From contig OZ241867.1 in the NCBI GenBank assembly GCA_965203175.1, positions 4,992,001 to 5,056,000 of the forward strand: a DNA stretch of 64,000 nt, written 5' to 3'. Shown here one piece after another: positions 35,333 through 60,858 of this stretch; position 1 is the stretch's first letter, and each line of letters opens with the position of its first letter. The notes under the pieces are model-generated. The model worked only from the letters and a program-made list of their open reading frames with translations. It ran no database searches and was not told where the DNA came from. This DNA comes from Candidatus Latescibacterota bacterium. GTDB taxonomy: Bacteria > Latescibacterota > UBA2968 > UBA8231. The position numbers and the translations under genes were made by a program.

Positions 35333-35364
35333 GCCATCTACCTTTGCTTGTTTGGGTTGAGGAA

Positions 35365-37713
35365 CTAATAGGCCACGGCAAGGGGCCGCAAAACCGCCTC
35401 ACCACTACTCGCCGCGCCCGGATCAATTAGGCAAAAATACATCCCCGGCAACGCCAACCCATTGTCCGCAGTCCGCCCCGACCAGCGGAAATGCCAGCGT
35501 CCGGCGACCTTGATGCCCGTCGGCTGAGCCACTAACTGACCGGCGACGTCGAAAATCTGTACTCGCGGCTGGATGCCCTGTGCCTTGAAGACTATAAAGC
35601 TGATCTCTACCGCGTCGTTGACCCCATCGCCGTTGGGCGTAAACGCCACGGGCGCGATCTCCACATCGCCGACGAGTGCAGCCTGGGCGGGCAGGTCGGG
35701 CAACAACACGATATTGGCCCGTCGCTCGCTCGGGACTACCGACTGCCAGATCCCGGGGCGCTCGTCCGCGCCTAGATCGAGCGCGAACAGCGCTGCGTTG
35801 TCCCAAAGCCGCGCCGTAAAATCCACTTCCACCGAATCGGCAACCACGGTGCGCGGCAATAGGACCAAAAGTGAATCGCCGTGCAGTTTCACCGAATCGG
35901 GCGCTACCTCTTCCCCTCCGATCCGCAGTGCCACGTTGCCCGTGGCCGCGCCGGGAATGTGAAAGCGCAAGCGATCGAAGCCGCTGTCCTGCCCGTCGGT
36001 GCTCGACCACAGTGTATAGGTAAAGCGCGTATCCTCGTTGAGCTGAGCTTCCCGAGGCCAGATTTGCCCCTGTGCCTCCTGTACCAGTGCATCGGTAAAT
36101 TCTATCGCCAGTGCATTCACGGCCGGAGCCACCTGCGAATCGTCGGTTGTCAGAATCATCTCCAATTGCACGAAGCGACGCGGGCTCGCCGATTGGAAAG
36201 ACTCTCCCGAAGTCTGGTACACGTTGCTCCAAGCGTCCCAATCTTCTCCGACGACCAAGGTCGTATCAATGGAGCCTTTTAACACCTTGGGCAAGCTGTT
36301 CCACTTCTCCTCGGTGACAATATCGCTTTTGCGATCGAAGAAAGTGTACAATTCCTGTAGTGCATTACCCGAGCGCGAACGCAGCTGGATCTTGGTCTGC
36401 GGCGGCAGGTCCGCCTCCCATGTAATCCGCTCGATCACTTGGGGCCGGCCGTTGCCCGCCTGCGACGCCAAGTCGATAAAGTCCGAGCGCAAGTTCACCT
36501 CGGCTGGATGACCCGAGGAAAAAAGCATCGCCTCCAAGCCCCAACCAAACCCCTGCGGCGTCCCGTCAATTTCGTGCCACAGCAGGTAGCGGACCTTGCG
36601 CGGAGCGAACAGATAGCGCTGGTGAAAGAGCCGGCCGAGACACTGCGGCCGGCAGCGATCTTCGACCAAGACCTCGTAGTCAACTCGCTCGGGCACCGGC
36701 AACCCCGATCCCGCGGCTGGGCGGCCGTCGGACACCAGAAACAACCCGCCGGCCGCCGAGGGATTGCCCCCTTGGACTTGGCTGCGCAACCCTTCGCCCA
36801 ATTGGCTGAAGTAAATGAAAAGTTCGTCGAGGAAGAACACCGCCCCCAGATCCACTCGCCACCACACGCCGGCCTCCACCCAACCTCCCTCGGCACTGGT
36901 CAACAGCGCGAAGCTGTCCATATCGCCGTCGAACATCAGCGCCGCGCCCGTAGTCCGACCGCCTTCGAGAAAACTGCCCCCGCGACCCGCCGTGCCCAAG
37001 CTCACATTGTCCCCCACCGCCAAGACCTCGACCTCCGCTAGCGCCACGCCCGGGCTGTACTCGTCGATTTCGATAATGATATACTGGATCACTTGAAAGC
37101 GCTTCTCGCGCTCTAAATCGAGCTTCAGCCCCTCGTCGAGTACATAGGTGCTGTCGGTCCTTAGATACTCTAGGGGAATCACCAGTTCGGTGGCGGCATT
37201 GGGTCTGGACGTGCGATAGACCGCTTCAAACTTGAATACATCGTTGAGCGCTTGGATGCGGGCACCCGAGGCGACAAAGACGCTAAATTGCCGCAAGGGC
37301 CGCGCGCCCTCGCGGTCGGGAAAGATCAAGCGGATCTGACGCGCCAGCACCGGACGCCCCAAATCTATCTGCACCGACCACTGATCAAGCGCATCGTCGG
37401 GGTCGGGTTGCCAGAAGGTTTCCAGATCGCCATCGATAATCAAGTCTGCTGTCTGCGGATTGCTCTTGGCCTCCCAGATTCCGCCGGTCACCTCGCCGCG
37501 CTCCTGCGTTGGATGGCGAAAATCCCCGGCGTTGGCCACGGCGTTGATCTCCTTGCGGAACTTGGTCAGCCGCAGCCTGCCGTCGGCATCGATCTGCACT
37601 AAGTCGTTGGGCATCTGCCAAGTCCGCCACGCCGCCGCACTGTCGAAGCGGAGCTCGTCGGCCCATACCGCGCCGATTCCCAACAGTAGCGCATAAAACG
37701 AGCGCATCGCCAT
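35365..37713 (-). CDS. Large secreted TPNGDG/FlgD-CTD protein (subtype II)
   Basis: Signal peptide. Motifs DELRFDSAAAWRTWQMP, IIDGDLETFW, IDLGR, RSRSGN, SASPRRF and FTPNGDGVND; ends LAVAY. Confidence 0.8.
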   Translation of the reverse strand: MAMRSFYALLLGIGAVWADELRFDSAAAWRTWQMPNDLVQIDADGRLRLTKFRKEINAVANAGDFRHPTQERGEVTGGIWEAKSNPQTADLIIDGDLETFWQPDPDDALDQWSVQIDLGRPVLARQIRLIFPDREGARPLRQFSVFVASGARIQALNDVFKFEAVYRTSRPNAATELVIPLEYLRTDSTYVLDEGLKLDLEREKRFQVIQYIIIEIDEYSPGVALAEVEVLAVGDNVSLGTAGRGGSFLEGGRTTGAALMFDGDMDSFALLTSAEGGWVEAGVWWRVDLGAVFFLDELFIYFSQLGEGLRSQVQGGNPSAAGGLFLVSDGRPAAGSGLPVPERVDYEVLVEDRCRPQCLGRLFHQRYLFAPRKVRYLLWHEIDGTPQGFGWGLEAMLFSSGHPAEVNLRSDFIDLASQAGNGRPQVIERITWEADLPPQTKIQLRSRSGNALQELYTFFDRKSDIVTEEKWNSLPKVLKGSIDTTLVVGEDWDAWSNVYQTSGESFQSASPRRFVQLEMILTTDDSQVAPAVNALAIEFTDALVQEAQGQIWPREAQLNEDTRFTYTLWSSTDGQDSGFDRLRFHIPGAATGNVALRIGGEEVAPDSVKLHGDSLLVLLPRTVVADSVEVDFTARLWDNAALFALDLGADERPGIWQSVVPSERRANIVLLPDLPAQAALVGDVEIAPVAFTPNGDGVNDAVEISFIVFKAQGIQPRVQIFDVAGQLVAQPTGIKVAGRWHFRWSGRTADNGLALPGMYFCLIDPGAASSGEAVLRPLAVAY

Positions 37714-37717
37714 GCTC

Positions 37718-39736
37718 TCAGTAGATCAGTGTTAAAGGGCGCAACCGACGGCTCCCCGTCCGCTCGGCTTCGGGTGCTATTTCAACTAGGTAGAGACCGG
37801 GCGACAACAAAACTCCGTCCTCATCGCGCCCACCCCAGCGCACTCGCTGCGCACCAAAGCGCTGCACACCTAATGACCGCTTGGCTACTCGCCTTCCGTC
37901 GAGCGAATATACCTTGAACACTACGGGCACATCCTCGGGCAACCCCACCAGCGCATAGCCGATCTCGACCTCGTCGTGGACTCCGTCGCCATTGGGCGTC
38001 AGCACCCTAGTGGAAAAATCCAACCCCACCACCGGCCCATCGCTTTGCCCGGCCGTCCCTAAGACCCGCAGGCTGTTGGTCCCCAGTTCGGCGCTGGCAT
38101 CGCCCGGTTCGACGGGCTGAGGCAGCGCATCGACACCTGCATTATAGACCTCGCCCGAAAACGTCCAAGCCAGTGAGAACACATCGGAGACAAAGACGAC
38201 CCGTGCCTCCTCTGTGGACCCCGGCTCGATCCGCTCCGGCAACACGACCGCTAGTTCCTCGTCGCCTTCAATAACTGCAACCGGCTCGACCTTCCTCGGG
38301 GGATGCCCCATTTCCAGCCTAGTAAACGCAGCCCGCGTCCCGGTGCGAATCCTCAGCGCATCAAAGCCTGCTCCCTCACCGACAAACTCGCCGCGGATGT
38401 CGTAGATCAGTTCCGCCACTTGACCCAACGGCACTTGGGTCAAGCCCCCCGCCGGCTGCACATCGCCAGCCAGAGCCACCTCGCCCACGACCCGGCTGGC
38501 CAGTAGCGGCGCAGTCTCAATCCACAACGAGTCGAGCCGCACGAATGCGGTAAACTCCTCGCTTTTGAGCGTAATCCGCAACTGGAAATGGGTCCCCCCC
38601 TTGAGGTCAATCGCCTGACCTGGTTCGGAAAAGGGCAACGACCAAAAAGACCAATTGTCGCTATCGTACTGAATAGAGGCGCGCATTCCCGGCCGGGGAT
38701 CGCGCAGTAGGCCGGCGCGCCAGCGCGGCTGCAGCACCAAATCGTAGCGCTCGCGCGTCACCACTTCCTCGCCGCCGCGATCCGTGTACTCGTGGTAGAT
38801 ATTCGGATCCCCATCGCGACCGGTGCGCACCTCCACCTCCACCCCCACCTCGGCATCGGGAGCCTCCACCAGTTCGCCATCGATGGCGCGCAACGGCGTC
38901 GCCGCCCAGAACAGGCGACCAAAATTGCGGGACGCGTCCAAGTCGAATATCCGCGAGCGGTACACCACTTTGCGCGGCACCCCCTCGCCGAAGAGTTCAA
39001 AGTCGCCGATTGATCCCTTGAAAGCGGTCCCCGAACGCACGCTGGTATTGCCCCCTCTCCCCGAATCCAACAGCGAGGTCTTCCGCTTGTAGCGCACGAA
39101 GCGCACGTATTGTCTGGGAAATTCGATCTGCACTCGGGTGACAAAATTTTCGGCTACATTGGCAATTAGTGGACCAATGCGTTTATAGGGTTGAGACCCT
39201 TCGAGCCAACTCGGATCGCCTTCCGCTGCGATAGACACCTCGTAGGCTGGCACGGCATCTTGGGCAAAGGGGATACCATCGGAGCGAAAGCCCCTAGGCG
39301 GGGTAAAAAAACCAAAGCGGTGTGCAGGCACCGGTACGGCCAAATCGATGGTGTACCAGACCGATTCGGGATTGGACGAGACCGGCGGATTGAACGACAT
39401 GCTGTCCCCATCGACCATATAGGTGCCATTGTGAGCCGTCGTCTCGTTGCCCTGCGAACCCTTCCAAGCCCGCGGCGTCTCACCCTCGACATAGGACAAC
39501 TCGCGCGGCTCTTTGAGTGGTTCCCAGCCGGTAAAGAGTGCAAGCAAACTTTGGTTGGGGTCGATATAGACAGGTTGGATCGCGCCGGGCACCGAGTCGA
39601 AATCAATGAGCACCACAGCAGAATCGTTTTCGCTCCAGGCTAAGCCCGCACCACCGATCTGCCAACTGTGTCGCTGGGCACCGCTAGCCGTCGCCCAGCA
39701 GACCAGCAGCAGCCATGTGAAAGCCTTAACCGCCAT
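37718..39736 (-). CDS. Large secreted TPNGDG/FlgD-CTD protein (subtype I)
   Basis: Signal peptide. Motifs WQIGG, FGRLFW, RTGRDGDPNIY, NWSFWS, LTPNGDGVHD and WGGRD...PGLY; ends LTLIY. Confidence 0.8.
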   Translation of the reverse strand: MAVKAFTWLLLVCWATASGAQRHSWQIGGAGLAWSENDSAVVLIDFDSVPGAIQPVYIDPNQSLLALFTGWEPLKEPRELSYVEGETPRAWKGSQGNETTAHNGTYMVDGDSMSFNPPVSSNPESVWYTIDLAVPVPAHRFGFFTPPRGFRSDGIPFAQDAVPAYEVSIAAEGDPSWLEGSQPYKRIGPLIANVAENFVTRVQIEFPRQYVRFVRYKRKTSLLDSGRGGNTSVRSGTAFKGSIGDFELFGEGVPRKVVYRSRIFDLDASRNFGRLFWAATPLRAIDGELVEAPDAEVGVEVEVRTGRDGDPNIYHEYTDRGGEEVVTRERYDLVLQPRWRAGLLRDPRPGMRASIQYDSDNWSFWSLPFSEPGQAIDLKGGTHFQLRITLKSEEFTAFVRLDSLWIETAPLLASRVVGEVALAGDVQPAGGLTQVPLGQVAELIYDIRGEFVGEGAGFDALRIRTGTRAAFTRLEMGHPPRKVEPVAVIEGDEELAVVLPERIEPGSTEEARVVFVSDVFSLAWTFSGEVYNAGVDALPQPVEPGDASAELGTNSLRVLGTAGQSDGPVVGLDFSTRVLTPNGDGVHDEVEIGYALVGLPEDVPVVFKVYSLDGRRVAKRSLGVQRFGAQRVRWGGRDEDGVLLSPGLYLVEIAPEAERTGSRRLRPLTLIY

Positions 39737-39873
39737 GACACGTCCTTTTTATTAATTGTAACACAATGGCCACATAAAATTAAGGGCCGACAAACTGTGC
39801 AAAATTCCTTATACTAAGTGTTTCTTTATAAAGAACCTCTCGTGTCCACATCCCCAAATTGAACGGCAAACGC

Positions 39874-41166
39874 ATGCCAAAGCGCGCGATTGAGCAAGGA
39901 ATTTTGGTTTTCCCCGCTGGCGCTGCAACCGATGTGCAGGTCGCTGGCCGCACTCTCCTCCAGCGCGGAATCCGCACCATGGCCAGCGTGGGCATCAAGC
40001 GCGTCTTGGTCGTGCTCCCTCCCGGCCACGCCCCCAGCGACAAATCTCCGGTCCCCGACCTCGATATCCAAGTAGAGCAAACCACCCTGGAGGCCGCCCA
40101 CCTACCCAGCGCGCCCTTCCTATTGCTCAGGGGCGATTGCGTCCACCACCACTCCTCGCTGCAAGCCATCATCGACGCGGGCCTGCAACGAGACGCCCTC
40201 GTCGCGCAAATCAGCGACGACGGTCGCGTCAGCAGCGGAGCGTTTCTCTGCGCGCCGGGCGCGTTGCCCTCGGATGCGCTAACCAGCAACCTCTGGAGTT
40301 GGCTGGCAGCGCGTCCGCACCGCCGCGAAGATATCGCGCCACACCTGTGGCAACGCGTGACCGACAAGCGCAGCGCGCGTACCGCTAAGAACATGCTCTT
40401 CGACCAAGTGAGCAAGGCCACCAGCGGCACGGTAGCGCGCCTGCTCAACGTGCGCATCTCAGTGCCCATCAGCAAACTCATCGTCGATACCGGCATCTCG
40501 CCCAACATGGTGACCTTTTTCATGGTCCTATGTCCGGGCCTGTTCGCCGCCTATTTGGCGACGCAGCCCGACGACTATCTGCGACTTGTATGCGCCGGTG
40601 TCCTCTGGCAGCTCGCCTCCATCCTCGATGGCTGCGACGGCGAGATCGCCCGCGTCAAGCTGGCCGAAACCAAATTCGGCGCTTGGTTCGACACGGTTAC
40701 CGACAACCTCGCCTATCTCTGTGGCTACGCTGCGCTTATGGCTGGTATGTGGCACCTCTATCCCGGCAACTACCTGCCCATCTACGCCGGCATCTCCGCC
40801 ATCGCCTCGCTGGTCCTGACTCTAGTTCTGCTCTACAGCTACGCCCTAAAAACCGGCACCGGCAGCCTGCAATACTACCTCGGAGACTTGGGCAACAAGG
40901 TGCCCTATGGCGAAAAGGACTGGAGCTATCGGTTCCTAGAGCGCGCCGGCTTTATTACCAAGCGGGATTTCCTCTCATTGTTCATTGCCATCGGTTTGGT
41001 GGCCAATCTGTTGCCGGTCGTTTATTGGCTCTTAGTCATCCTGCTGCACGTGGCGGCGCTGGGCGTTTTGACCACCCACTATCGGCTGATGGGCAACCAG
41101 CGCACCGCCGAGCGGCAGATCGCCTCACTTCCGGCCCCGGCCGTCAACCCAGAGGAGGCCGCGTGA
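39874..41166 (+). CDS. CDP-alcohol phosphotransferase with a degenerate N-terminal nucleotidyltransferase-like domain (IPCT/DIPPS-like architecture)
   Basis: ISPNMVT and DGCDGEIAR...FGAWFDTVTD form the CDP-alcohol signature. The N-terminal VAGRTLLQRGI...GIKRVLVV region lacks LAAGxGxR. The start may be TTG 39859. Confidence 0.85.
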   Translation: MPKRAIEQGILVFPAGAATDVQVAGRTLLQRGIRTMASVGIKRVLVVLPPGHAPSDKSPVPDLDIQVEQTTLEAAHLPSAPFLLLRGDCVHHHSSLQAIIDAGLQRDALVAQISDDGRVSSGAFLCAPGALPSDALTSNLWSWLAARPHRREDIAPHLWQRVTDKRSARTAKNMLFDQVSKATSGTVARLLNVRISVPISKLIVDTGISPNMVTFFMVLCPGLFAAYLATQPDDYLRLVCAGVLWQLASILDGCDGEIARVKLAETKFGAWFDTVTDNLAYLCGYAALMAGMWHLYPGNYLPIYAGISAIASLVLTLVLLYSYALKTGTGSLQYYLGDLGNKVPYGEKDWSYRFLERAGFITKRDFLSLFIAIGLVANLLPVVYWLLVILLHVAALGVLTTHYRLMGNQRTAERQIASLPAPAVNPEEAA

Positions 41167-42194
41167 AAGCGCTGCAAATTTCCATGGTCGCCTTTGGCTT
41201 CCTGCTGCTCGGCTATCTCGTCGGTCAGCTCGGGGTCGATGAAGTCCTCCACCATTTGGACGCGATCAAGTGGATGTTCCCCCTGCTGTTGCTGCCCTCG
41301 TGCGTCTGGCATTTCTCCAACACGATCGCCTGGAACTTCGCCTTCCCACCCGACGCCTTCAAACCGAGGCTGCTCACCCTTTTTGCAGCCAAGCTGGCCG
41401 GCGAGGCGGTCAATCAACTCACGCCGCTGGCCAATCTCGGCGGCGAGCCAGTCAAGGCCTATTTGCTCACTCACCGGACACCCGGCCCGCGCGGCATGGC
41501 CTCGGTGGTCGTTGACAAAACCGCGCAAATTGCAGTCGGCCTGTCCTTTACCGTTCTCGGCCTAGGGTTGTTGTTCTACTACCACGACGTATCCGAGCTC
41601 ATCCCCTTGGAATACCGGGTCTTTTTCGCATGCCTGCTCATCGTCAGCTTGGCGGCCTTCTGGGTTTTCTACAAGCGTCAAGAGCACATGTTCACGTCCC
41701 TGCTCAAACTGCTCCGCTCTGCTGGCCTGCGCACCGACATGATCGAGCGCAATATGGGACGCGCAGCGCGCATCGACACCAATATCGGCACCTTTTACCG
41801 CACCCATCGCACCCGCTTCCTGCGCGCCTTGTTCTTTCAGAGTATCGGCTGGTTTATGGGCACCTGTGAGACCTACGCCATCCTCTGGGCACTGGACGCG
41901 GGCGTTGGTTTTTGGTTTTGTTTTTTGCTCAACGCCTTGGGCGCGGTCATCAACGGCCTGTTCTTTTTCATGCCCTCCAATATCGGGGTCATGGAAGGCA
42001 GCCTCGTATTTTTATTCTCCAGTTTGGGGTTAGACCCGTCCCTCGGTCTGTCCTTGGGTCTTACCCGCCGCATGCGCCGCGTGTTCTGGATCTTCATCGG
42101 CTGGACCTGCCTCAGCTACATGAGCAGGACCGCGCTCCAGCGCCGTCCTGCAACGGCTTTAACCATGCTTCAGAAACAAGAAAACCCGCGCTGA
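41163..42194 (+). CDS. Lysylphosphatidylglycerol synthase TM/flippase-like protein (UPF0104)
   Basis: GTG start overlaps the upstream TGA. Motifs GEAVNQLTPLANLGGEPVKAYLL, VVVDK and PSNIGVMEG; many TM helices. Confidence 0.85.
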   Translation: MKALQISMVAFGFLLLGYLVGQLGVDEVLHHLDAIKWMFPLLLLPSCVWHFSNTIAWNFAFPPDAFKPRLLTLFAAKLAGEAVNQLTPLANLGGEPVKAYLLTHRTPGPRGMASVVVDKTAQIAVGLSFTVLGLGLLFYYHDVSELIPLEYRVFFACLLIVSLAAFWVFYKRQEHMFTSLLKLLRSAGLRTDMIERNMGRAARIDTNIGTFYRTHRTRFLRALFFQSIGWFMGTCETYAILWALDAGVGFWFCFLLNALGAVINGLFFFMPSNIGVMEGSLVFLFSSLGLDPSLGLSLGLTRRMRRVFWIFIGWTCLSYMSRTALQRRPATALTMLQKQENPR

Positions 42195-42218
42195 CCCCGA
42201 CCCACAAGAGACAGAGCA

Positions 42219-42968
42219 ATGCGTCGACACATACTCGCTTGCCTAGCGGGCTGCTGCGTCCTCTCTCTCTACACTGCCTCTGCCCAAGACGCGCCGCCGG
42301 CTGGAGGCGAGCACGAAGCCCCTCCTTACATCGTCATTGAAGACTTTACCACCACGCCCCTAGACAGCCTGCCTCGCGGCTGGCGCTGGCGCGGCAAGGA
42401 CGACGACAAACCCAAACTCTACGCCGTCCGCGAGGCCAACGGCCGCCGCTACCTAGCCGCCCAAGATACCGGCCACTCGGTCGTCCTCATGAAGCGATTC
42501 CACTGGGATCCCCGGCAATACCCTATTATGACTTGGTGCTGGCGCGCCGACGCCCTGCCGCCAGGGGGCGACGAGCGCTACACCGAGACCAACGACAGCG
42601 CCGCCGGAGTACACGTCATTTTTTCGCGCAACCTCCTCGGCATCCCGCGACAGATCAAATACGTGTGGAGCACGACCTTGGCTCCAGGCACTGTCTCCCG
42701 CCGCAAAGGCATTGCCCGCCCTTGGTTTGTCGTGCTCCAAAGCGGGCCGGAGAAGTTGGGGCAATGGCTCCAAGAGTGGGTTGATCTAGAAAGAGATCAC
42801 GAGCGCATTTTGTCGTCCAACCTGCCGAAAAAAACCATTGGCATAGCTTTGCTCACCGATGCCAATTCGACCCGGGGGTACGCCGCAGCCGCCTACGCCG
42901 ACTTCCGGGTCTGGCCGCGGTCAGCGCTGGCACACATCCCCAACTACTGCGCCGGCCTCCCCCCATGA
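42219..42968 (+). CDS. Exported DUF3047-like protein
   Basis: Signal peptide. Motifs YPIMTWCWRAD, DSAAGVHVIF, IKYVWS, GQW and GIALLTDANST. Confidence 0.7.
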   Translation: MRRHILACLAGCCVLSLYTASAQDAPPAGGEHEAPPYIVIEDFTTTPLDSLPRGWRWRGKDDDKPKLYAVREANGRRYLAAQDTGHSVVLMKRFHWDPRQYPIMTWCWRADALPPGGDERYTETNDSAAGVHVIFSRNLLGIPRQIKYVWSTTLAPGTVSRRKGIARPWFVVLQSGPEKLGQWLQEWVDLERDHERILSSNLPKKTIGIALLTDANSTRGYAAAAYADFRVWPRSALAHIPNYCAGLPP

Positions 42969-44116: not shown

Positions 44117-44135
44117 TCCGTAGCTATTCGTCGCG

Positions 44136-46513: not shown

Positions 46514-46587
46514 GGTCTGTCCTTTCTCAAGAAGCCGTCTTGAATACTACCACTCGGAAGGGCGACAGCCAAATTTTCCGCTTAGAC

Positions 46588-47169: not shown

Positions 47170-47180
47170 AGCTGTGTCGC

Positions 47181-47594: not shown

Positions 47595-47761
47595 AGTAGA
47601 GGCCGACAGGTTCTCGTCCTAAAAATACCACTCTCAACACCTGCGGGAAGGACTTCCTTCCCCTATTTTCCCGCAAGAAGCAGTTGTGCAAATACTATCG
47701 TCCAGCTTGACCTCTTACCAATAATACCTGTTTATTTGCCCTACGATTCGGAGACGATCCC

Positions 47762-48625: not shown

Positions 48626-48638
48626 TCGGTTCAGGGTC

Positions 48639-49682: not shown

Positions 49683-49715
49683 GGCGCGAACACCGTCCCC
49701 AAAGAAAGGAATCCC

Positions 49716-50507: not shown

Positions 50508-50517
50508 CAAACTAATC

Positions 50518-52518: not shown

Positions 52519-52594
52519 GGAGGCTCCTGCTGTTTGCGGATGGCGAGATTGGTCGGCCTCAAAAAACTGTCAAAATCCCTCACAAGTCCACCCC

Positions 52595-52630
52595 AAAGTC
52601 CGCATTTCCGTGATCGGCACCGGTGGACGA
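52595..52630 (+). pseudogene. Remnant of a Gfo/Idh/MocA N-terminus
   Basis: This intergenic stretch translates to KVRISVIGTGGR, similar to VQVALIGTGNR of 24072-25352. Confidence 0.4.
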
Positions 52631-52760
52631 ACCTCAGCGCCTACTGTTGCAAACGAATGCGAACGAACTTGACCCACGACCAGCAAAGTTCCTTTATTTT
52701 CTTTAGCTATCCCGACCACATGCTGAGCCTTTCCAGCAAAAAGAAGCTAGCGGTAACTGT

Positions 52761-54050
52761 ATGAGAGCAATGACGCGGCGATCGCTGCTCCGTGTCGGCC
52801 TTACCGGTTGCTTGGTCGCCCCTTGGTGGCACGCAGTGCGGGCCTTTGCCGCCCGCCCCGCCGAGCTACCGACGAAATCTGGCGTGACCGATACCGAGAT
52901 CATCCTCGGCACGTCCGCCGCTTTCTCCGGCCCCTCCCGAGGGTTGGGCATCGAACTCTATCGGGGAGCCGGTGCATATTTTACCCACGTCAATCAGCAA
53001 GGTGGCATAGCCGGCCGCACCGTACAGGTCAAAGCCTACGACGATGGCTACCAGCCCGGCCCTTCGGTCAAAAACACCATGAAGCTGATGCTCGACGATC
53101 AGGTGTTTTTGCTGTTCGGTTACGTTGGCACGCCGACGGTGACGCGCGTGTTGCCCATCCTCAAAAAATTCCAAGACCGAAACATCCTGCTGTTCTTCCC
53201 CTTCACTGGCGCGCAACCCCAGCGCGAACCGCCCTATGGTGCCTTCGCCTTTAACCTGCGCGCCTCCTACCGCCAAGAAACGGCTGGGCTAGTCGATAAT
53301 TTCTTGCGCGTCAATCGCCGACGCATTGCCGTGTTCTATCAAGCCGATGCGTACGGCCGCAGCGGCTGGGCCGGCGTGCGCAGCGCCCTGAAAAAGCACG
53401 GCGAGCAAATCGTCGGCGAGGCCACGTACCGGCGCGGCGAACGGTTCACTGGCACGATGCGCAAACAGGTTGAAATCCTCAAGGAAGCCAAGCCCGAAGC
53501 AGTAATCTGCATCGGCGCCTATGCAGCCTGCGCGGCCTTTGCCCGCGATGCAGTCGATCTCGGCCTGCAAGTACCCTTTGCCAACCTGTCCTTTGTCGGC
53601 AGCGAAAACCTCCTCAAGCTGCTCACCGAGGGGCGCGACGACAGCCAGCGCTATACGCAATGGCTGGTAAACTCCCAAGTGGTGCCCAGTTACGAAGACA
53701 CGTCCATACCCGCAGTCCAAGAGTACCGCGACTTGATGACTCGCTACGCCCCACAGCCGCCAGCAGAACTGTTAAAAGACCCCTATACGCCCTTTGACCA
53801 CAGCTTCGTCAGTCTCGAAGGCTTTCTCAACGCCAAGTTGCTAGTCGAAATTTTGCACCGCCTCGGTGCCGAGCCGCAGCGCCACCAACTCGAAGACGCG
53901 GTGTTCTCCGTCGCGGACTTCGATCTGGGCATCGGCGAACAGGTCTCCTTTGGTGCCGACCGCCGCCAAGGTCTCCAGCGAGTGTACTACACGGTGGTCG
54001 ATGCAGGTCGTTTTGTCCCTCTGGACGATTGGCGCGCTAGGTTTGCATGA
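52761..54050 (+). CDS. Tat-exported type I periplasmic binding protein (LIV-BP-like)
   Basis: MTRRSLL twin-arginine signal. Motifs GVTDTEIILG, VNQQGGIAGR, YDDGYQP, GYVGTPT, NLRASY and DAYG. Confidence 0.9.
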   Translation: MRAMTRRSLLRVGLTGCLVAPWWHAVRAFAARPAELPTKSGVTDTEIILGTSAAFSGPSRGLGIELYRGAGAYFTHVNQQGGIAGRTVQVKAYDDGYQPGPSVKNTMKLMLDDQVFLLFGYVGTPTVTRVLPILKKFQDRNILLFFPFTGAQPQREPPYGAFAFNLRASYRQETAGLVDNFLRVNRRRIAVFYQADAYGRSGWAGVRSALKKHGEQIVGEATYRRGERFTGTMRKQVEILKEAKPEAVICIGAYAACAAFARDAVDLGLQVPFANLSFVGSENLLKLLTEGRDDSQRYTQWLVNSQVVPSYEDTSIPAVQEYRDLMTRYAPQPPAELLKDPYTPFDHSFVSLEGFLNAKLLVEILHRLGAEPQRHQLEDAVFSVADFDLGIGEQVSFGADRRQGLQRVYYTVVDAGRFVPLDDWRARFA

Positions 54051-54772
54051 TGGTGATAAAAGTCCAAAAGCTCTTTAAGAAAACGCTGTTCGGCGTCTTT
54101 GCCCTATTTGGCTTGATCGGCCTATCGACCTCCATTCTGTGCGTCTATACGGTCGATACGCACCTGTCGGCCGAATACGAGAGCAACAGCCGCGACATTG
54201 CCAAGACCATCGCCGATTCCAGCGTCGATATTCTCTTAAATCGCGACTTGTCAGCTTTGCAGTCGCTCATTGATCAGTTCGTCGAGATTCAGGGCATCAA
54301 GTACATCTACATCACCGACGAATCCGGCGAGTTCCTCGCCCACACCTTTGTACCGGGCATTCCCGCAGAAATTCGCGCCAGCGATCCGTTTAATATGGAA
54401 ACAGTGGAGCGCAGCCTGCCCGGGATGGGCGATTTTGTCGAAGTGGGCAGCCCGATTCTCGCCGGCGTTGCCGGGACGGTTCACGTGGGCATGGACACCG
54501 GTTTGATTGCGCTAAAAATTCAACGCGCAATCGGCCAGCAGGTGTACCTCTTCTCCATCATCCTCGTCGTCGGCGTTTTTGCCGCCATCTGGTTGGTCAA
54601 TCTGGCGGCTAAGCCAATGGGCGCGCTCTTGGGCTACGCCGTGGGCGTGGCGCGCGATGAGAAGCCCACCGACGACAACCTGCTGGCGCGCGACGACGAA
54701 GCTGGACACCTAGCTCGACTCTTCCTCTACGTTGCCGACAAAGGCCAGCGCACGCCCGAAAGCGCAGAGTAG
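54047..54772 (+). CDS. Two-TM sensor-like membrane protein with a degenerate HAMP and no output domain
   Basis: TM, periplasmic domain (YIYITDESGEFLAHTF...GTVHVGM), TM, then HAMP-like KPMGALL...DEAGHLA and stop. ATGA overlap with the binding protein. Confidence 0.75.
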   Translation: MMVIKVQKLFKKTLFGVFALFGLIGLSTSILCVYTVDTHLSAEYESNSRDIAKTIADSSVDILLNRDLSALQSLIDQFVEIQGIKYIYITDESGEFLAHTFVPGIPAEIRASDPFNMETVERSLPGMGDFVEVGSPILAGVAGTVHVGMDTGLIALKIQRAIGQQVYLFSIILVVGVFAAIWLVNLAAKPMGALLGYAVGVARDEKPTDDNLLARDDEAGHLARLFLYVADKGQRTPESAE

Positions 54773-54820
54773 ATTGCGCAGCGAGACTAGCGAGTGCTTG
54801 GCGATTGAGGTCTAGGGAAC

Positions 54821-56134
54821 ATGGCGCAACAAAGAGTACTAATTCCGCGCTCGCTTATGGCGCTGTTCTGCACGGTCCTGCAGGTCTGTTTTGGGACGGT
54901 GTACGCGTGGAGTTTCTTCCAGACGCTCTTGGTGCGGCAATTGGGTTGGTCGTTCACGGAAACGGCTTGGGCTTTTAGCCTGACGATTCTTTCGCTCGGC
55001 ACTTCGGCGGCTTGGGCGGGCGTGCTGCTGCCGAGGGTCGGACCGCGGTGCTTGGCTGTGACCGGCAGCATCATGTTCTCGGTCGGCTATGTGCTGGCGA
55101 GTCTGGCGCTAAAGTGGGACATGCTCGCGCTGTTCTACGTGGGGTACGGCGTCATCGGAGGAGCGGGCATCGGGCTGGGCTACGTCACGCCCGTGGCGAC
55201 GGTGGCCAAGTGGTTCCCGGACAAGAAGGGCTTGGCCACCGGCATCGTCGTGATGGGGTTCGGAGTAGGTGCCTTTCTGTTGAGCAAGGGTTTGGCACCT
55301 CTGCTCGTATCCCACCTAGCAGGCGATCTGTCCCATGTCTTCCTAGGTCTCGGGGTGGTCTTCGCCTGTGTCCTGATCCCCTGTAGCTTGCTGCTGAGCA
55401 ATCCCCCGGCGGCCGCTGAAGCGGTTGCCGAACAAACGCCCGCCGACGAGTCCGACTCGGCGGCACCGTATCTGCGCTCCTCTGAGTTCGCCCTCATGTG
55501 GATCGTCTTCTTCTTCAACATCGCCGCCGGCATCTCCGTCATCAGCTTTCAGTCGGAACTACTCCAGGAAGTCTGGGGCCTAGCCGATCCAACCGTAGAA
55601 CCGGCGACGCTGGCCGAGTACGGGGCCACGCTGATCGCCATCAGTTCGCTGTGCAATGGCGTGGGCCGGCTGTTTTGGGGATTGCTCTCGGATCGGCTGG
55701 GGCGCGTCAAGGTTTTCAGAATTCTGCTCGCCAGCCAGATGGTCGTGTTTGGCATTTTGATGACCGAGCGCAATCCCTATGTCTTTTCGGTTCTCGTTTG
55801 TTACATCCTCCTGTGCTTTGGCGGCGGCTTTGCCACCATGCCCTCTTTTGTGCTCGATGTTTTTGGCCCGCAAAAGATGTCGACGATCTACGGGACCATT
55901 TTGACGGCTTGGGCAGCAGCGGGGATTTGCGGGCCGCTGTACGTGGGGTATCTGAAGGACCAATACCCCGACCGGGCGTTCATCTATTGCTTCCTGATCG
56001 GCATTCTGATGCTTGGGCTTGGCTACGTATTCTCCTATTTGCTGAGCGACGATCGCATTCGTCTCCGTCGGCCGACCCTAGAGGATACGCTGCGTCAGTA
56101 TGGCATTTTGCCCGTGGAACAAGGTGTACGTTGA
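54821..56134 (+). CDS. OFA (oxalate/formate antiporter) family MFS transporter
   Basis: Motifs GTVYAWS, GLGYVTPVATVAKWFPDKKGLATG, NGVGRLFWG.LSDRLGR and YGTILTAW. Confidence 0.9.
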   Translation: MAQQRVLIPRSLMALFCTVLQVCFGTVYAWSFFQTLLVRQLGWSFTETAWAFSLTILSLGTSAAWAGVLLPRVGPRCLAVTGSIMFSVGYVLASLALKWDMLALFYVGYGVIGGAGIGLGYVTPVATVAKWFPDKKGLATGIVVMGFGVGAFLLSKGLAPLLVSHLAGDLSHVFLGLGVVFACVLIPCSLLLSNPPAAAEAVAEQTPADESDSAAPYLRSSEFALMWIVFFFNIAAGISVISFQSELLQEVWGLADPTVEPATLAEYGATLIAISSLCNGVGRLFWGLLSDRLGRVKVFRILLASQMVVFGILMTERNPYVFSVLVCYILLCFGGGFATMPSFVLDVFGPQKMSTIYGTILTAWAAAGICGPLYVGYLKDQYPDRAFIYCFLIGILMLGLGYVFSYLLSDDRIRLRRPTLEDTLRQYGILPVEQGVR

Positions 56135-56276
56135 TACCTCAATGTGACTGCGTGGTGGCCGCCCGAACTCGCTGTGCGGACTTGCGGTTAGCAGTTGCTC
56201 TTCCCCCCTTTTTTCTATATATCCCATAAGTAAGCCTGTCGAAGATTACTCACACCGCCCGAAGGGGATCGTCCAG

Positions 56277-58214
56277 ATGAGCCGAAGTCTGGTATTGCCG
56301 CTGATAGCCTTGGTATTTTGCGCCATTCTGACCGACGTGAGCCATGCGCTGACCATCTACCGCATCGGCGGCTCCGACCTGCCGCCGCCCGAGCGCGACG
56401 CGCCTTTCGACTTCATCCAACTAGAATGGGCCGATATCGACGCCAAGCAGCACGGCAGTACCCTGCTGACGGAGATCAGCACGACCCTCGCGCCCGAGCA
56501 ACTAGACCCCATAGTCAACCTGACACCGTTGCTGGATGAACGAGGTGGAAAAATCGAAACGCTGCGCTCGATCGTGGGTTGGGCCGATTTTCCCGCCCGC
56601 GACGCACCGATGTTCGACGGCGACCCCACCACTCACTTTCTCGGTGACGGCGATTGGGGCGGAGACTACGGCGCGATAGAAAACAAAGTGCTGGTATTTG
56701 ATATGGGCGGATTATTCAACATCGACCGGGTGCGCTTCTATCCCCGAGAAAAGCACCTTGTAGATCGCTTTATCCAGACCGTTATAGTCGGCATCAACGA
56801 CGGTGACCCGCTCAAGGACGGGACTCGGGAATACCTAGTAGGCGAGGGATGGAGACGGCGGCCGCCAGGCGCGCGGAAAGACTTTGAAATCGTCCTCAAC
56901 GCCACTGAAAACACCCGCTCCGATATCGTCATCGAAATGCCCGACCGGCCGATCCGCAACATCCTATTTGAAGCGCCGGCCAACATCCGCGGCGTCTGGG
57001 AAATCGCCGAATTTGAAATTTACGGCTCCGGTTTTGCACCACAGGCTACCTACGTCTCCAATGTGATCGATCTAGGTCAACCCGTTAGCTTGGGCCGACT
57101 CAACTGGTCTGCGCAGGAGGACGAAGGTGCGGCGATTGATTTGACTATGCGCAGCGGCGACGATTCCGATCCCAACACCTACTGGCGCAAAACGTTCCGC
57201 GGCGACGAGACTACGCGCTATAGCGATGGCAAAGCCTTGGTTTTGTCCACGTACAAGAAACTGGACAAAGGGGAGCGAGCCGGAATCACGCCGGATACCG
57301 AAAACTGGCAAGCTTGGAGTCCCCCGTACGATCTAGCCCTCAGCAGCGGCGACCTCGCCGGCAACAAGCCGCGGCAATTCGTCCAGTTTGCCGTCCAGTT
57401 CTCTTCCACTGCGGAAGCGGGCGGATGGCTGCATTACCTGCAATTTGAAGTATCCAATCCGCCGGTGGCATCCCAAGCCCTGGCCGAGATCGTCCCCGTG
57501 GAGGTGCCGGCGGGCGCAGTAACGCAGTTTACCTACAAGATCCTGCCGCGATTAACCGGCACTGATCTGGGTTTTGACAGCATTGAGATCAAAACGCCAG
57601 CTCGGGTCGCCAGCATCGATCAGGTCCGACTGGAAGGCTTGCCGGTGGATTTCACCGAGGTCCGAGTGGAAGAGAATGGATTTGAGTTGCGAATTCCCCG
57701 CATGGACCTACAGCGCACCAACGAATTGCTGGAAGTGGATTTCCAAGCCCAGGTCTTCCAGTTTGGCACGGTATTCGCGGCGCGGATTTTCGATAGCGAG
57801 CAGCCCCACGAAGTGCATCAGGAGGTCACGGCAGGGGATGCCGATCAACTGGTCGATAGCAACACCTTGAGTGTCGGTCTGATAGCTATCGACAAAAAGG
57901 CGGTCAACGTCCTGCGCCTGCCCACGCGGGCGTTCACCCCGAATGGGGACGGTGCCAACGATCTGCTGCGAATTCAGTACGAATTGCTCAATCTGGGTGC
58001 CGTACCAGTGGCTATTGATCTATACGATCTTTCGGGACGGCGCATCGGCGAGATATATCGTGGCACCGCAGCCAGCGGCAGTTTTGAAGTGACTTGGGAT
58101 GGTCGCGATGCCCAAGCCAACTTGGTGCCGCCGGGCCTCTATATCCTGCGCCTAGAGGTGGATAGCGACGGGGGGATGGAATCGAAGGAACGAGTGGTTT
58201 CGCTGGTTTATTGA
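56277..58214 (+). CDS. Large secreted TPNGDG/FlgD-CTD protein (subtype I)
   Basis: Signal peptide. Motifs YRIGG, MFDGDP, IDLG...LGRLNW, RSGDDSDPNTY, NWQAWS, FTPNGDGAND and WDGRD...PPGLY; ends VSLVY. Confidence 0.8.
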   Translation: MSRSLVLPLIALVFCAILTDVSHALTIYRIGGSDLPPPERDAPFDFIQLEWADIDAKQHGSTLLTEISTTLAPEQLDPIVNLTPLLDERGGKIETLRSIVGWADFPARDAPMFDGDPTTHFLGDGDWGGDYGAIENKVLVFDMGGLFNIDRVRFYPREKHLVDRFIQTVIVGINDGDPLKDGTREYLVGEGWRRRPPGARKDFEIVLNATENTRSDIVIEMPDRPIRNILFEAPANIRGVWEIAEFEIYGSGFAPQATYVSNVIDLGQPVSLGRLNWSAQEDEGAAIDLTMRSGDDSDPNTYWRKTFRGDETTRYSDGKALVLSTYKKLDKGERAGITPDTENWQAWSPPYDLALSSGDLAGNKPRQFVQFAVQFSSTAEAGGWLHYLQFEVSNPPVASQALAEIVPVEVPAGAVTQFTYKILPRLTGTDLGFDSIEIKTPARVASIDQVRLEGLPVDFTEVRVEENGFELRIPRMDLQRTNELLEVDFQAQVFQFGTVFAARIFDSEQPHEVHQEVTAGDADQLVDSNTLSVGLIAIDKKAVNVLRLPTRAFTPNGDGANDLLRIQYELLNLGAVPVAIDLYDLSGRRIGEIYRGTAASGSFEVTWDGRDAQANLVPPGLYILRLEVDSDGGMESKERVVSLVY

Positions 58215-58230
58215 CTTGAGAACTCAGTAG

Positions 58231-60858
58231 GTGGTAAGAGATATGGAACGGATTCTTAAGCGCATAAGCTGGGCGGTCTTGTCGGCGGTTCTGGGTACGG
58301 CGGCGTATGGTCAGGGGGCGGGCCATCAGGTGACGACCAACCAGGTAGTGGTCGACAGAACAGCGCACTGGCGCAACTGGACCTTCCCCCAAGGGGTAGT
58401 GGAAATTTCGCCCAGCGGTGCCTTGACGCCGCACCAGTTGCACCGCGACATCAACGCGGTACAGGACATCGCCGCTTATCTGCAAGCCCGCCCACCCGAA
58501 GGAGTAAAAAAGGCCCCCGAAGAAATTACTGTCTTGGACGGCATCCAGGCCGGAACTGCTGGCAACCGGGCGGACGTGGTCAACCTTTTTGACGGCGACC
58601 TAGAAACGTACTGGCAGCCCGACCCGCCCACGGGTGAGGGCGAGTTGGCCAGCCAATGGTGGTTTATCGTCGATCTGGGTCGGCTAGTGATGGCCAAGAG
58701 CATCGTGCTGAAGTTCGTCGACGAGGAATTGGGCGATCCCTTCCTGCAGTTCGATGTGCTGGTGTCCCAGGGTAACAAGCCCCCGCGCTCGGACTCGTTC
58801 AAATACACCGCTATGTGGCGGACCCTTAAGCCCAACAAGGAACAGCGGCTCTTCGAGATCGACATGAAGTTGGAGCGCGAGTTCGAGGGTGCCGGCATTC
58901 GCTTCCTGCAGGTGGTAGTGACCGGCAGCAATTTCGGCCGGGGTCGAGAAGTCACTCAGGCCGAATACGACCAGCTAGCCGCCAACGAGCGGGGCGAGGT
59001 CGATTATTTCAAGCTCCATGCCGACGGGCGCGAGACCCTAGTGACGCAGGAAGTACACCCCCAACTCGAGCCCGGGCAACAAGGCCCGGTGCGCTATTAC
59101 CGGGCTGAGCGTCCACGGCTGGCCGAGTTGGAAGTGTGGGTGGAAGGCGACGAAATCCTCACCGGGGCGCTGGACAGGGGAGGTTTCGGCACGGCTACCC
59201 AGACGGCATCGATCAATAGCTTGATTGACGGGCAGATCGAAAGCAAAGTGCAATTCATCTACACCTATGGCCGGGGATCGCTCAAGTCGCCCGAAGGGGA
59301 GGTGTTTTTCGACCTAGGTGCCTTTTACTGGATTGACGCCTTCAGGCTGGCCTACGGCGGTTCCAGTTTTTCCGATTACCGACTGGATTTTTCGGACGGC
59401 ACGCTGGCCGCCGACGGCAGCATCAAGTGGAACACCGCCGTTGACCGCGAGCAGCGGAGTGGCTGGGGGCCTTCAGCCTTGGGCCTAGGCTACGGGCGGT
59501 ATGAAGGTAACGATTTCGAGCGGCTTAAAGCCCGTTTTTTTCGCTTTGTCTGGAAGCAGTTCGAAAGCACCAGTTCCACGGGCAAAGGCGGAGCCACCGG
59601 TCAGCCAGCGGAGATGCAGTTATACGGGCGGGGTTTCCTACCCGAAGTAACGCTGACCTCCGATTTGATCCGTTTGCGAGGCAGCCGCAACCTGCTCTCC
59701 GTCGAGTGGGACGCCGACACGCCACCCGGCACGAGCGTGCTGATCCAGACCCGTACTGGCAATGAGTTGAGTGAAACCCTGCATTACTTCAAAAAAGACG
59801 GCACGGAAGTATCCAAGGAAGACTACGACAAGCTGCTGTCGATCTTCCGCGGCGAGATCGTCGCCGAAGAAACCGCCGGTTCCGACTGGGAGCCGTGGAG
59901 CCAGCCGTACGAAGACCCGGCCGGTTCGCCGGTGACTTCGCCCAGCCCGCGCGAGTTTCTGACTTTGCGGGCGACCTTGCTGTCGGACGATCCAGCGGTC
60001 AGTCCGACCTTGCGCTCAATTCGGCTCAACTTTAGCAATCCCGTCGCTCAGGGCCTCACCGGTGAGATCTCGCCGTTTCAGGTGGACCAACTGGGTCAGG
60101 AGCAGATGTTTTCGTTCTATGTGCGTCCAGACTTCGGGAGTCGGGATCCGGGCTTCGACCAGTTGCTGCTGGTGGCACCGCCTGATATGCCGCTGCGCTT
60201 CGTGGGACTATATGCCGGTGCCGAGGATGCCTTCGGTCCCAGCACTGACCTATCCAGTCTAGCCATGGCCGACGTGGAGGTGATGCAGACGCGCGTGGAC
60301 AGCTTGCAACTGGCCTTCCCGCCGGTGGGACCGAGCTCAGGCGTAGAAGTGCTGCGGCTCGATTTTGCGACGGCGTTGTTTTCAACGGGCGCGGTGATGC
60401 GGACGCTGTTAAAAAATAGCGGCGAGGGAGAGGGCAACTGGCAACGCGTCGATGCCGGCAACGCGCTGGACGGCATCGAGAGCAACACCACGACGCTGGT
60501 CGGTGCGGTTCAGAGCACCTCGCTGCTGACAGAGGTAGAGGTGATACCGCGAATCTTCACACCCAACGGCGACGGCGTCAACGACCAAGCTCAATTCGCC
60601 TTCAAGGTGGTGCGGGTGGGCGACGATAGCCCGGCGGAAGTGGAAGTTTTCGATCTGGCGGGCCGTCAGGTGCGTCGGTTGGTCGAGCAGCGAGATTTGA
60701 GTACCGGCTCCTATTCCATCGGCTGGGACGGCAGAGACGACGCAGGGGCTTTGGTGCCGCCTGGAGTGTATTACGCTCGTTTGCGGATCGACACCGACAC
60801 CGAGGGTGCTGGCATCGATGGCGAGCAGGTCCTGAAAACCATTGCCGTCGCGTACTGA
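58231..60858 (+). CDS. Large secreted TPNGDG/FlgD-CTD protein (subtype II)
   Basis: Signal peptide (start may be ATG 58243). Motifs HWRNWTFP, LFDGDLETYW, VDLGR, QTRTGN, SPSPREF and FTPNGDGVND; ends IAVAY. Confidence 0.8.
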   Translation: MVRDMERILKRISWAVLSAVLGTAAYGQGAGHQVTTNQVVVDRTAHWRNWTFPQGVVEISPSGALTPHQLHRDINAVQDIAAYLQARPPEGVKKAPEEITVLDGIQAGTAGNRADVVNLFDGDLETYWQPDPPTGEGELASQWWFIVDLGRLVMAKSIVLKFVDEELGDPFLQFDVLVSQGNKPPRSDSFKYTAMWRTLKPNKEQRLFEIDMKLEREFEGAGIRFLQVVVTGSNFGRGREVTQAEYDQLAANERGEVDYFKLHADGRETLVTQEVHPQLEPGQQGPVRYYRAERPRLAELEVWVEGDEILTGALDRGGFGTATQTASINSLIDGQIESKVQFIYTYGRGSLKSPEGEVFFDLGAFYWIDAFRLAYGGSSFSDYRLDFSDGTLAADGSIKWNTAVDREQRSGWGPSALGLGYGRYEGNDFERLKARFFRFVWKQFESTSSTGKGGATGQPAEMQLYGRGFLPEVTLTSDLIRLRGSRNLLSVEWDADTPPGTSVLIQTRTGNELSETLHYFKKDGTEVSKEDYDKLLSIFRGEIVAEETAGSDWEPWSQPYEDPAGSPVTSPSPREFLTLRATLLSDDPAVSPTLRSIRLNFSNPVAQGLTGEISPFQVDQLGQEQMFSFYVRPDFGSRDPGFDQLLLVAPPDMPLRFVGLYAGAEDAFGPSTDLSSLAMADVEVMQTRVDSLQLAFPPVGPSSGVEVLRLDFATALFSTGAVMRTLLKNSGEGEGNWQRVDAGNALDGIESNTTTLVGAVQSTSLLTEVEVIPRIFTPNGDGVNDQAQFAFKVVRVGDDSPAEVEVFDLAGRQVRRLVEQRDLSTGSYSIGWDGRDDAGALVPPGVYYARLRIDTDTEGAGIDGEQVLKTIAVAY

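Follow-up and report, generated by a model that had tools for sequence, protein, structure and literature searches.

Amplified cassettes of lectin-like proteins with a type IX-like secretion tail and a recurrent candidate outer-membrane partner in a Latescibacterota bacterium

Type-B proteins carried as cargo by a type IX secretion system (T9SS) combine a Sec signal with a C-terminal domain (CTD) of the TPNGDG type (CHU_C), and are exemplified by SprB with SprF, PG1035 with PorP and 12 substrates of Flavobacterium johnsoniae. According to the parts of PMC9143113 and PMC12618676 that treat them, such cargo binds cognate PorP/SprF-like outer-membrane proteins to which it is genetically linked. 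Orphan type-B substrates in Flavobacterium either use PorV or depend jointly on a partner whose gene lies elsewhere, as one section of PMC12618676 reports, and an excerpt of PMC11285876 places the T9SS in other phyla of the Fibrobacterota–Chlorobiota–Bacteroidota (FCB) group, including Gemmatimonadetes. The present work concerns a family of large paralogous proteins, S (subtype I) and L (subtype II), five of which (P0001 to P0005) are encoded in a 64,000-nt stretch of DNA from a Candidatus Latescibacterota bacterium, positions 4,992,001-5,056,000 of a single 6.58-Mb contig whose genome is 93% complete. This whole stretch is called the window. On an evenly balanced judgement, S and L are T9SS-exported, non-enzymatic, lectin-like surface modules with a dedicated outer-membrane partner, a protein family termed B.

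The resemblance of this system to type-B cargo and PorP/SprF extends to several levels. S and L carry a comparable combination of Sec-type signal and type-B-like TPNGDG CTD, the cargo gene adjoins a gene for a candidate dedicated envelope partner, several diverged sets occur in one genome, and SprA, PorU and a PorV-like gene are encoded in that genome. The differences are the following: the partner is the ~914-aa B and not a ~300-aa PorP/SprF protein, there are 164 cargo and 62 partner copies against 12 substrates, and the organism lies outside Bacteroidota, with the NCBIfam type-B model below threshold and PorKLMN-type parts undetected by the GldM and GldK models.

Other known systems share less with this family. 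With SusC/SusD loci it shares logic only, namely diverged cassettes in which surface glycan-binding proteins and a large outer-membrane protein, here predicted, stand in a fixed order. In contrast to those loci, TonB_dep_Rec and Plug find no match in the five window proteins (E <= 0.1), in 15 members of B (E <= 1) or in the other neighbour families; the helical SusD fold and a SusD family match are absent, the S and L models being all-beta; the cassettes hold no recurrent genes for carbohydrate-active enzymes (CAZymes); and the export signal is of T9SS type instead of lipidation. The analogy with SusC/SusD drawn in the original prediction survives at most in logic, and the recurrent partner turns out to be B, a family absent from the window. 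Carbohydrate-binding modules of family 32 (CBM32, F5/8 type C) are matched by sequence in L (P0001, P0002) and by fold in S (Z 12.7), but in S and L no enzyme is attached to the module, which is followed instead by a non-catalytic beta-sandwich stalk ending in a secretion signal. The genes of TfsA and TfsB are adjacent and paralogous, and their CTD is of type A. As two large T9SS cargo proteins acting together, in the partial account of PMC8869499, TfsA and TfsB resemble S and L; they differ in forming a single pair with no lectin domains, no amplified cassettes and no B-type partner. The lectin module, the Ig-like domains, the T9SS tail and the placing of cargo beside an outer-membrane partner are of known kinds. 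What is new is partner family B, the division into S and L, the composition of the cassettes and the extent to which they are amplified.

The S/L family and its recurrent partner B

Genome searches with P0002 (L-type) and P0003 (S-type) returned 187 and 156 matches, and phmmer with all five window proteins (E < 1e-5) returned 211 open reading frames (ORFs), of which 164 bear the shared core and 46 the tail only. When classed by the number of discoidin-like domains before the core, the 164 members comprise 96 S proteins with a median length of 682 aa, 63 L proteins with a median of 843 aa, and 5 unclassed proteins. S has one CBM32/discoidin-like domain and corresponds to subtype I, and L has two and corresponds to subtype II. 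The 164 copies are 22-70% identical to one another and occupy 5.6% of the genome, a share that reaches 10.2% when B and the neighbour families A, P and C are included. In a FastTree phylogeny of the shared core and CTD, all 63 L proteins form one clade (support 0.992), and the S/L label changes once on the tree, against a mean of 49 changes with shuffled labels. This single change indicates that the two subtypes, first proposed from the window genes, are ancient and real.

Recurrent partners were sought by clustering three genes on each side of every S/L cluster and searching profiles of the recurrent clusters genome-wide. The most closely linked family is B, a protein of ~914 aa with no family match, of whose 62 copies 60 lie within three genes of S/L, a fraction that is partly circular because the families were seeded from neighbours and that is informative mainly in how few copies lie elsewhere. 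The same reading applies to A (~313 aa, CBM9-like; 35 of 45 copies within three genes), P (~561 aa, a SurA-like peptidyl-prolyl isomerase; 31 of 40), C (a lipoprotein of ~260 aa; 14 of 18), F (FG-GAP with UnbV_ASPIC; 56 of 133) and D (DUF6785 with DUF6784 and a median of 10 hydrophobic segments; 14 of 51). A is called CBM9-like mainly because its protein-atlas features score 0.93-0.97 against clusters that bear CBM9; Pfam CBM9_1 is found in one of seven members (E 0.0011), and a profile search of A against PDB sequences gave 0 hits.

The gene directly 5' of B on the same strand is S in 25 cases, L in 16 and another B in 14, which together account for 55 of the 62 copies, and B is present in the directon of 107 of 163 S/L genes. 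B and its upstream gene have also diverged together (S-B, r = 0.883 over 25 pairs; L-B, r = 0.877 over 16 pairs; 0/2000 permutations each). The genome contains 68 islands with recurring gene orders, for example P-A-C-S-S-L-B-F-F, A-S-L-S-B-B-P and P-L-B-F-S-S-B-A. Among 121 sampled genomes of the phylum, S/L was found in 60 with a single-protein query and B in 72 with a profile query; every S/L-positive genome is also B-positive (60/60), and two sister families of genomes are without both S/L and B (0/29 and 0/13). Cassettes with these gene orders are also found beyond this genome, among them L-B-S-B under the label Planctomycetota and S-B-F under the label Ignavibacteriaceae.

Judged from indirect features, B is probably an outer-membrane barrel. 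Its N-terminus is signal-like, hydrophobic helices are lacking past residue 60 (median 0), Cys makes up 0.1% of the residues and F, Y, N and D are in excess, acidic DxDxD-type repeats lie in mid-protein, the C-terminal strand has alternating hydrophobic residues, and a SurA-like chaperone gene is regularly found near it. One example outside the window lies at genome positions 6514135-6516879 (minus strand). An exhaustive profile search of 1.84 billion proteins returned 1195 representative clusters at E <= 0.001. Kinship of B with the genome's own DUF6029 or PorV-like proteins was considered and rejected, since hhalign gave probabilities of 0.4% and 0.1%, respectively.

Taken together with the domain data below, these observations suggest a mechanism in several steps. 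S and L would be exported by the Sec pathway via an N-terminal signal peptide, after which the T9SS would recognise the C-terminal TPNGDG-type beta-sandwich domain and move the protein across the outer membrane. The cargo would then be kept on, or handed to, the cassette's own outer-membrane partner B, which could act as a cognate partner in the sense of an anchor or shuttle, as PorP/SprF does for type-B cargo, or as an uptake channel. One (S) or two (L) CBM32/discoidin-like domains would be displayed on a stalk built from beta-sandwich and Ig-like domains, and S and/or L would capture a glycan or glycoprotein ligand, so that each cassette would represent one surface binding module. The S and L lineages are ancient paralogs that multiplied jointly on many occasions, mostly within cassettes whose other genes encode B, the CBM9-like protein, the small lipoprotein, the SurA-like chaperone, FG-GAP/ASPIC proteins and a membrane protein with ~10 transmembrane (TM) segments. 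The ~60 diverged cassettes may thereby form a specificity repertoire for feeding on, or holding to, complex polymers. Of this picture, the domains and folds, the copy numbers, gene order, co-divergence and co-occurrence and the presence of SprA, PorU and a PorV-like gene are observed, and secretion, surface location, the type of ligand, the fold and role of B and any contact of S with L are inferred.

The scale of the family gives this proposal its interest: an uncultured host-associated bacterium devotes about a tenth of its genome to one cassette type, and S, L and B are without functional annotation in the sources searched. If B is indeed a cognate partner, the principle of type-B cargo with a dedicated shuttle reaches beyond Bacteroidota and beyond PorP/SprF, and if B is a new cargo-specific barrel, it opens a route to greater novelty. 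For sponge symbiont ecology, the cassettes are a testable candidate for polymer or host-surface recognition. Additionally, 164 natural variants of one lectin scaffold constitute a ready library for work on glycan-binding specificity.

Domain make-up and the predicted export route

The five window genes fall into two pairs and one solitary gene. The first pair lies on the minus strand and consists of the S-type gene of P0003 (37718-39736, 672 aa) followed by the L-type gene of P0002 (35365-37713, 782 aa), with 4 nt between them (37714-37717). The second pair, on the plus strand, consists of P0004 (S-type, 56277-58214, 645 aa) and P0005 (L-type, 58231-60858, 875 aa), separated by 16 nt (58215-58230); P0001 (14099-16423, plus strand, 774 aa) is a solitary L-type gene. 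The five ORFs of 645-875 aa, their motifs and both gaps were all as originally described when compared with the ORF list and translations. A five-way alignment has 43 invariant columns, which include DGD, WxxWS, GFD, TPNGDGxxD, W.GR, PGxY and a terminal Y. Subtype I is marked by WQIGG/YRIGG, GRLFW/GRLNW and RTGRDGDPNIY/RSGDDSDPNTY, and subtype II by WxxWxxP, R(S/T)GN and SxSPRxF. In BLASTP comparisons, the two subtype I proteins are 27% identical (E 7e-42), subtype II proteins are 28-30% identical (E 1e-49 and 2e-86, the latter for P0001 against P0002 at 30%), and the two subtypes share 25% identity across the C-terminal ~430 aa (E 3e-19). Judged from these alignments, homology among the five proteins is far above chance.

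Domain searches and structural models converge on a lectin-like architecture. P0003 has a signal peptide, one CBM32/discoidin-like domain, a beta-sandwich core, an Ig-like domain and a CTD resembling T9SS type B, and P0002 has two discoidin-like domains followed by the shared core and CTD. Hydrophobic, Sec-signal-like N-termini were read directly from all five translations, with no dedicated signal-peptide predictor, and across the 164 members the median number of hydrophobic segments is 1 per protein, with 0 past residue 60. Discoidin domains are matched by sequence in P0001 (PF00754, 36.5 bits, cut-off 28.2) and P0002 (PF00754, F5_F8_type_C, 28.7 bits; NedA-like PF22633, 31.3 bits, cut-off 27.8); in P0005 the matches are sub-threshold (22.7 and 24.5 bits), and in the S-type window proteins a discoidin sequence match is absent from the Pfam scan.

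Models of P0002 and P0003 were built with AlphaFold 2 from alignments of 53-54 relatives, reaching mean predicted local distance difference test (pLDDT) values of 87.5 (L) and 86.1 (S), and both are all-beta with short helices. The S model was searched with VIA-align against 48,161 PDB representatives. Its residues ~58-256 are predicted to form a CBM32/F5-8C jelly roll (4a42_B against residues 62-251, Z 12.7, root-mean-square deviation 2.6 A over 123 residues), and dozens of CBM32 entries that bind galactose, GalNAc, fucose or alginate follow at Z 10-12. Residues 412-563 match an Ig-like sandwich (Z about 10), and the PorU C-terminal domain (6za2_B, Z 11.9, root-mean-square deviation 2.6 A over 99 residues) is matched by residues 565-672, so that in the model this segment has the fold of a T9SS CTD. 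The S core, about residues 260-410, has no specific match in the fold searches. With Foldseek, the L model matches tandem CBM32 pairs (CBM32-1/-2) and neuropilin b1b2; beyond such domain matches, whole-model searches with S and L return only generic beta-sandwich arrays, and the lists for both contain no enzyme or catalytic fold. The fold and domain matches together imply that S bears one lectin-like domain and L two, with a stalk and a secretion tail common to both.

The C-terminal tail is also recognised by family models. CHU_C (PF13585) exceeds its 27-bit cut-off in four of the five proteins (33.3, 32.3 in P0002, 27.2 and 28.8 bits; P0003 reaches 15.5), and FlgD_ig exceeds the Pfam cut-off in three of the five. 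The NCBIfam type-A tail model stays below cut-off in all five window proteins. Identity with the flagellar protein FlgD was considered and rejected: the NCBIfam equivalogs for FlgD and for rod modification reach 12-25 bits where 230-383 are required, far too little for a flagellar relationship, and just the Ig-like domain matches. In tblastn searches, matches limited to the CTD (35-39% identity) fall in Bacteroidota records.

Components of the secretion machinery are encoded elsewhere in the genome. SprA (TIGR04189) reaches 618 bits when summed over the frame (cut-off 200), and PorU (NF033707) reaches 632.5 bits (cut-off 420); the region at 2958744-2963109 holds porU and, immediately 3' of it, a PorV-like gene whose 147.5 bits fall below the cut-off of 250. 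Together with the type-B-like CTD, these genes make a T9SS route for S and L plausible on sequence grounds, and to this extent the proposed T9SS-like export stands; GldM gave no match, in a search whose control was silent in every genome, and GldK gave weak, partial matches. PorP/SprF (PF11751) gives 0 matches in the genome, in a search whose control was silent everywhere, and the linked position is held by B instead. Weak PorV-like matches also fall in three more ORFs, of 325-353 aa, at 271532, 5493481 and 2978638. The partial GldK matches number 20 and cover the C-terminal half of that protein, a region that we take to be formylglycine-generating-enzyme-like; they lie in ORFs of roughly 235-440 aa, several of them at the edges of S/L islands (for example 6504842-6505327, 3457670-3458107, 5761785-5762300 and 2914076-2914513).

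Anchor, capture, adhesion or obligate pair

Several results weigh against S and L being T9SS-exported lectin-like modules partnered by B. The window's own three loci are without B, so that the anchor model gives nothing direct on them; if B is the anchor, these copies would have to depend on PorV or on a common partner from another locus. On the side of export, the NCBIfam type-B model TIGR04131 is below its 35-bit cut-off in four of the five proteins (best 23.8) and does not list P0003, GldM (TIGR03517) has 0 matches in the genome in a search whose control was silent in every genome, GldL and GldN were not searched for, and GldK (TIGR03525) has just the partial matches, at <=84 bits against a cut-off of 350. 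The GldM and GldK models are Flavobacterium-centred, and the silent controls mean that the null results for GldM and PF11751 are no proof of absence. As for B, no credible Pfam or NCBIfam match was obtained with representatives, 15 members or 9 distant relatives, its profile has 0 hits against PDB sequences at E <= 1, and 39 of 39 relatives in a set of 5.8 billion are without a Pfam domain and nameless or 'hypothetical'. The sole named look-alike of B is a DUF6029 'TonB-dependent-receptor-like barrel' cluster with a feature score of 0.89, which is below the counting level and a lead only. Genome ORF calling was crude (longest ORF, greedy overlap removal), and the partial circularity of the neighbour fractions counts here as well. 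Finally, glycoside hydrolase, lyase and sulfatase families are absent from the recurrent neighbour clusters, which weakens a feeding role.

The evidence on feeding against adhesion points both ways. The CAZyme-poor neighbourhood and the precedent of type-B adhesins favour adhesion, whereas the 10-TM protein, the chaperone and the occurrence beyond host-labelled records favour a capture or transport machine. A more ambitious version of the latter is offered tentatively: S/L, B, the CBM9-like, the SurA-like and the 10-TM proteins may together form an undescribed T9SS-coupled outer-membrane capture system, a counterpart of the Sus loci outside Bacteroidota, in which B would be a new class of large barrel serving as cargo anchor or uptake channel and which would be present in ~60 copies that make up about 10% of the genome.

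Catabolic enzymes do not single out the S/L surroundings. The original prediction had suggested testing the neighbours for catabolic enrichment, and none was found: 11 of 131 PhyH-like genes (p = 0.70) and 12 of 83 enolase-type genes (p = 0.09) lie within three genes of S/L, where chance gives ~9%. Catabolic paralogs are abundant throughout the genome, with ~131 PhyH-like and ~83 enolase-superfamily ORFs at E < 1e-10.

It is rather doubtful, although several features speak for it, that the cassettes are an adhesin repertoire for sponge matrix, other cells or particles, which would serve to colonise or recognise instead of capturing nutrients. Adhesion proteins typically have discoidin/F5-8C and Ig-like domains, known type-B T9SS cargo includes adhesins such as SprB (in the part of PMC9143113 concerned), DNA of the locus is present in sponge metagenome runs (word shares of 0.82 and 0.61), and no CAZyme family recurs among the neighbours. 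However, full-length relatives and the same cassettes occur in many records of metagenome-assembled genomes (MAGs) without a host label and under several phylum labels, and the family is thus not host-specific. The ~10-TM proteins (D) and the SurA-like chaperones of the cassettes point to machinery for transport or for the envelope, and ~60 diverged cassettes are many for adhesion alone.

The original prediction proposed S and L as obligate partners in a heterodimer that acts as a receptor or captures a substrate, every S depending on its own cognate L, and this is unlikely in the light of their genome-wide arrangement. Clusters were defined as same-strand genes with gaps of <=400 nt, which gave 102 in the genome: 33 lone S, 26 lone L, 14 SL, 5 SSL, 5 SLS, 5 SS and 3 LS, with rarer arrays that include SSS, LL and, as the longest, SLSLSSL. 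In order of transcription, the 62 adjacent pairs comprise 28 S>L, 17 S>S, 12 L>S and 3 L>L, and 2 have an unclassed member. The share of S>L is about twice that expected from the numbers of S and L, and in other genomes S>L again prevails (24 against 8 L>S; 73/79 loci with labelled genes). The proposed I-then-II order is accordingly the commonest adjacency both here and elsewhere. Nevertheless, an L follows only 28 of 96 S genes and an S precedes only 28 of 63 L genes; 59 of the 102 clusters are single genes, which leaves obligate pairing unsupported, and conserved cassettes contain S and B with no L, as in A-C-S-B-F. The S-then-L order is preferred and far from obligate.

Further points in favour of a heterodimer concern the shared history of the two genes. 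Very small gaps separate the two genes of a pair, S and L each form an ancient clade, and orthologues of the first pair have adjacent locus tags in three other MAGs. The congruence of the I and II trees, a comparison suggested at the outset, was confirmed over 28 pairs, where the S-S and L-L distance matrices are strongly correlated (Mantel r = 0.945) and 0/5000 permutations reach this value. Mirror trees can nonetheless arise from operon co-duplication alone, so that they establish co-inheritance and not physical contact. A complex prediction with partial lengths, S residues 25-572 and L residues 240-682, scored 0.00 against a mark of 0.32, a value that speaks neither for nor against a complex.

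The first pair also looks like an insertion/deletion unit between short direct repeats. A 12-nt direct repeat, ATGGCRGTTAAG, which encodes MAVK, is found on the minus strand at 39725-39736 and 35321-35332, at the starts of the S gene and of an oxidoreductase gene 3' of the pair. In a relative, one contig, which is all of the indel evidence (RNA run X19, <95% identity, side 115), joins position 35321 to 39726 and skips the 4404-nt S-L pair. The loss of exactly the pair, with ends at the 12-nt repeats, suggests that the pair comes and goes as one unit, a behaviour that counts in favour of a heterodimer but, like the mirror trees, demonstrates joint inheritance and not contact.

Least probable is that S and L assemble together into a surface layer or coat, in the manner of TfsA/TfsB of Tannerella forsythia (named as T9SS cargo of the S-layer in a portion of PMC8869499), with copies kept for surface variation: the ordered pair of large paralogous T9SS-type cargo genes and the S-layer proteins among the generic beta-sandwich arrays of the whole-model Foldseek lists speak for it, but those matches are generic, multi-domain and of low TM-score (TMq 0.12-0.15), 164 copies at 22-70% identity in distinct conserved cassettes with B, A, P and F are unlike a single lattice or silent variation cassettes, and the lectin-type domains point to ligand binding.

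The window loci, their neighbours and their occurrence

With respect to the preferred account of S and L as surface modules partnered by B, the window represents three stripped-down loci at the edge of a larger system, as the B gene is missing from the directons of all three (S-L, S-L and lone L). The P0002/P0003 pair sits in largely B-less subclades, with B accompanying 1 of 12 members of the S clade and 3 of 11 of the L clade (support 1.0 each). The P0004/P0005 pair lacks B although most members of its subclades are linked to it (S 10/12, L 9/12), and the lone L, P0001, belongs to a clade of 13 with 2 B-linked members.

The immediate neighbours of the window genes are as originally proposed and can now be named. 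The first pair is followed directly, on its 3' side, by a Gfo/Idh/MocA oxidoreductase (34307-35332, minus strand), and the second by a PhyH-type dioxygenase (60875-61699, plus strand), a member of the PhyH-like family with ~131 copies genome-wide. The solitary gene of P0001 begins 12 nt behind a gene for a GSDH/DUF7133 beta-propeller protein (11654-14086, plus strand), the CTD-bearing sugar dehydrogenase of the original prediction; its Por_Secre_tail (TIGR04183, 32.4 bits, cut-off 23) is a type-A T9SS CTD, and by this match the protein is predicted to be a separate T9SS cargo outside the S/L family. Two genes 3' of the first pair lies a PD40/CARDB beta-propeller protein (32620-34233, minus strand), and the region 5' of the second pair (52761-56134, plus strand) encodes a periplasmic binding protein, a single-Cache protein and a major facilitator superfamily (MFS) transporter.

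The family appears to be without a characterised function, as the original prediction had stated, and none is described in the literature found. No paper describing the S/L family, the cassette or B was retrieved by a search that did not extend to supplements, which may hold family lists, and paper searches that combined Latescibacter* with FlgD, type IX secretion, or sponge plus discoidin came back empty. Those passages of the sponge-Latescibacterota genome paper PMC12993501 that were available do not mention secretion, adhesins, FlgD, discoidin or the outer membrane.

Close relatives are labelled Latescibacterota or 'Gemmatimonadetes' in public records. Full S/L and B cassettes also occur on contigs labelled Gemmatimonas phototrophica (MAG), Planctomycetota, Gemmatimonadaceae and Ignavibacteriaceae. 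The presence of cassettes under several phylum labels reflects either a wide range, horizontal transfer or errors of binning or labelling.

The host of the locus is a sponge-associated bacterium, and DNA runs labelled sponge metagenome contain 61-82% of the sampled words of the first pair. In three RNA libraries, contigs of relatives that are 88-95% alike extend over parts of both first-pair genes, gaps in this coverage carrying no meaning, and one contig of 212 nt (RNA run X18, 37582-37793) spans the S/L junction. These contigs give a weak hint, short of proof of transcription or of a single transcript, that the first pair is transcribed in relatives.

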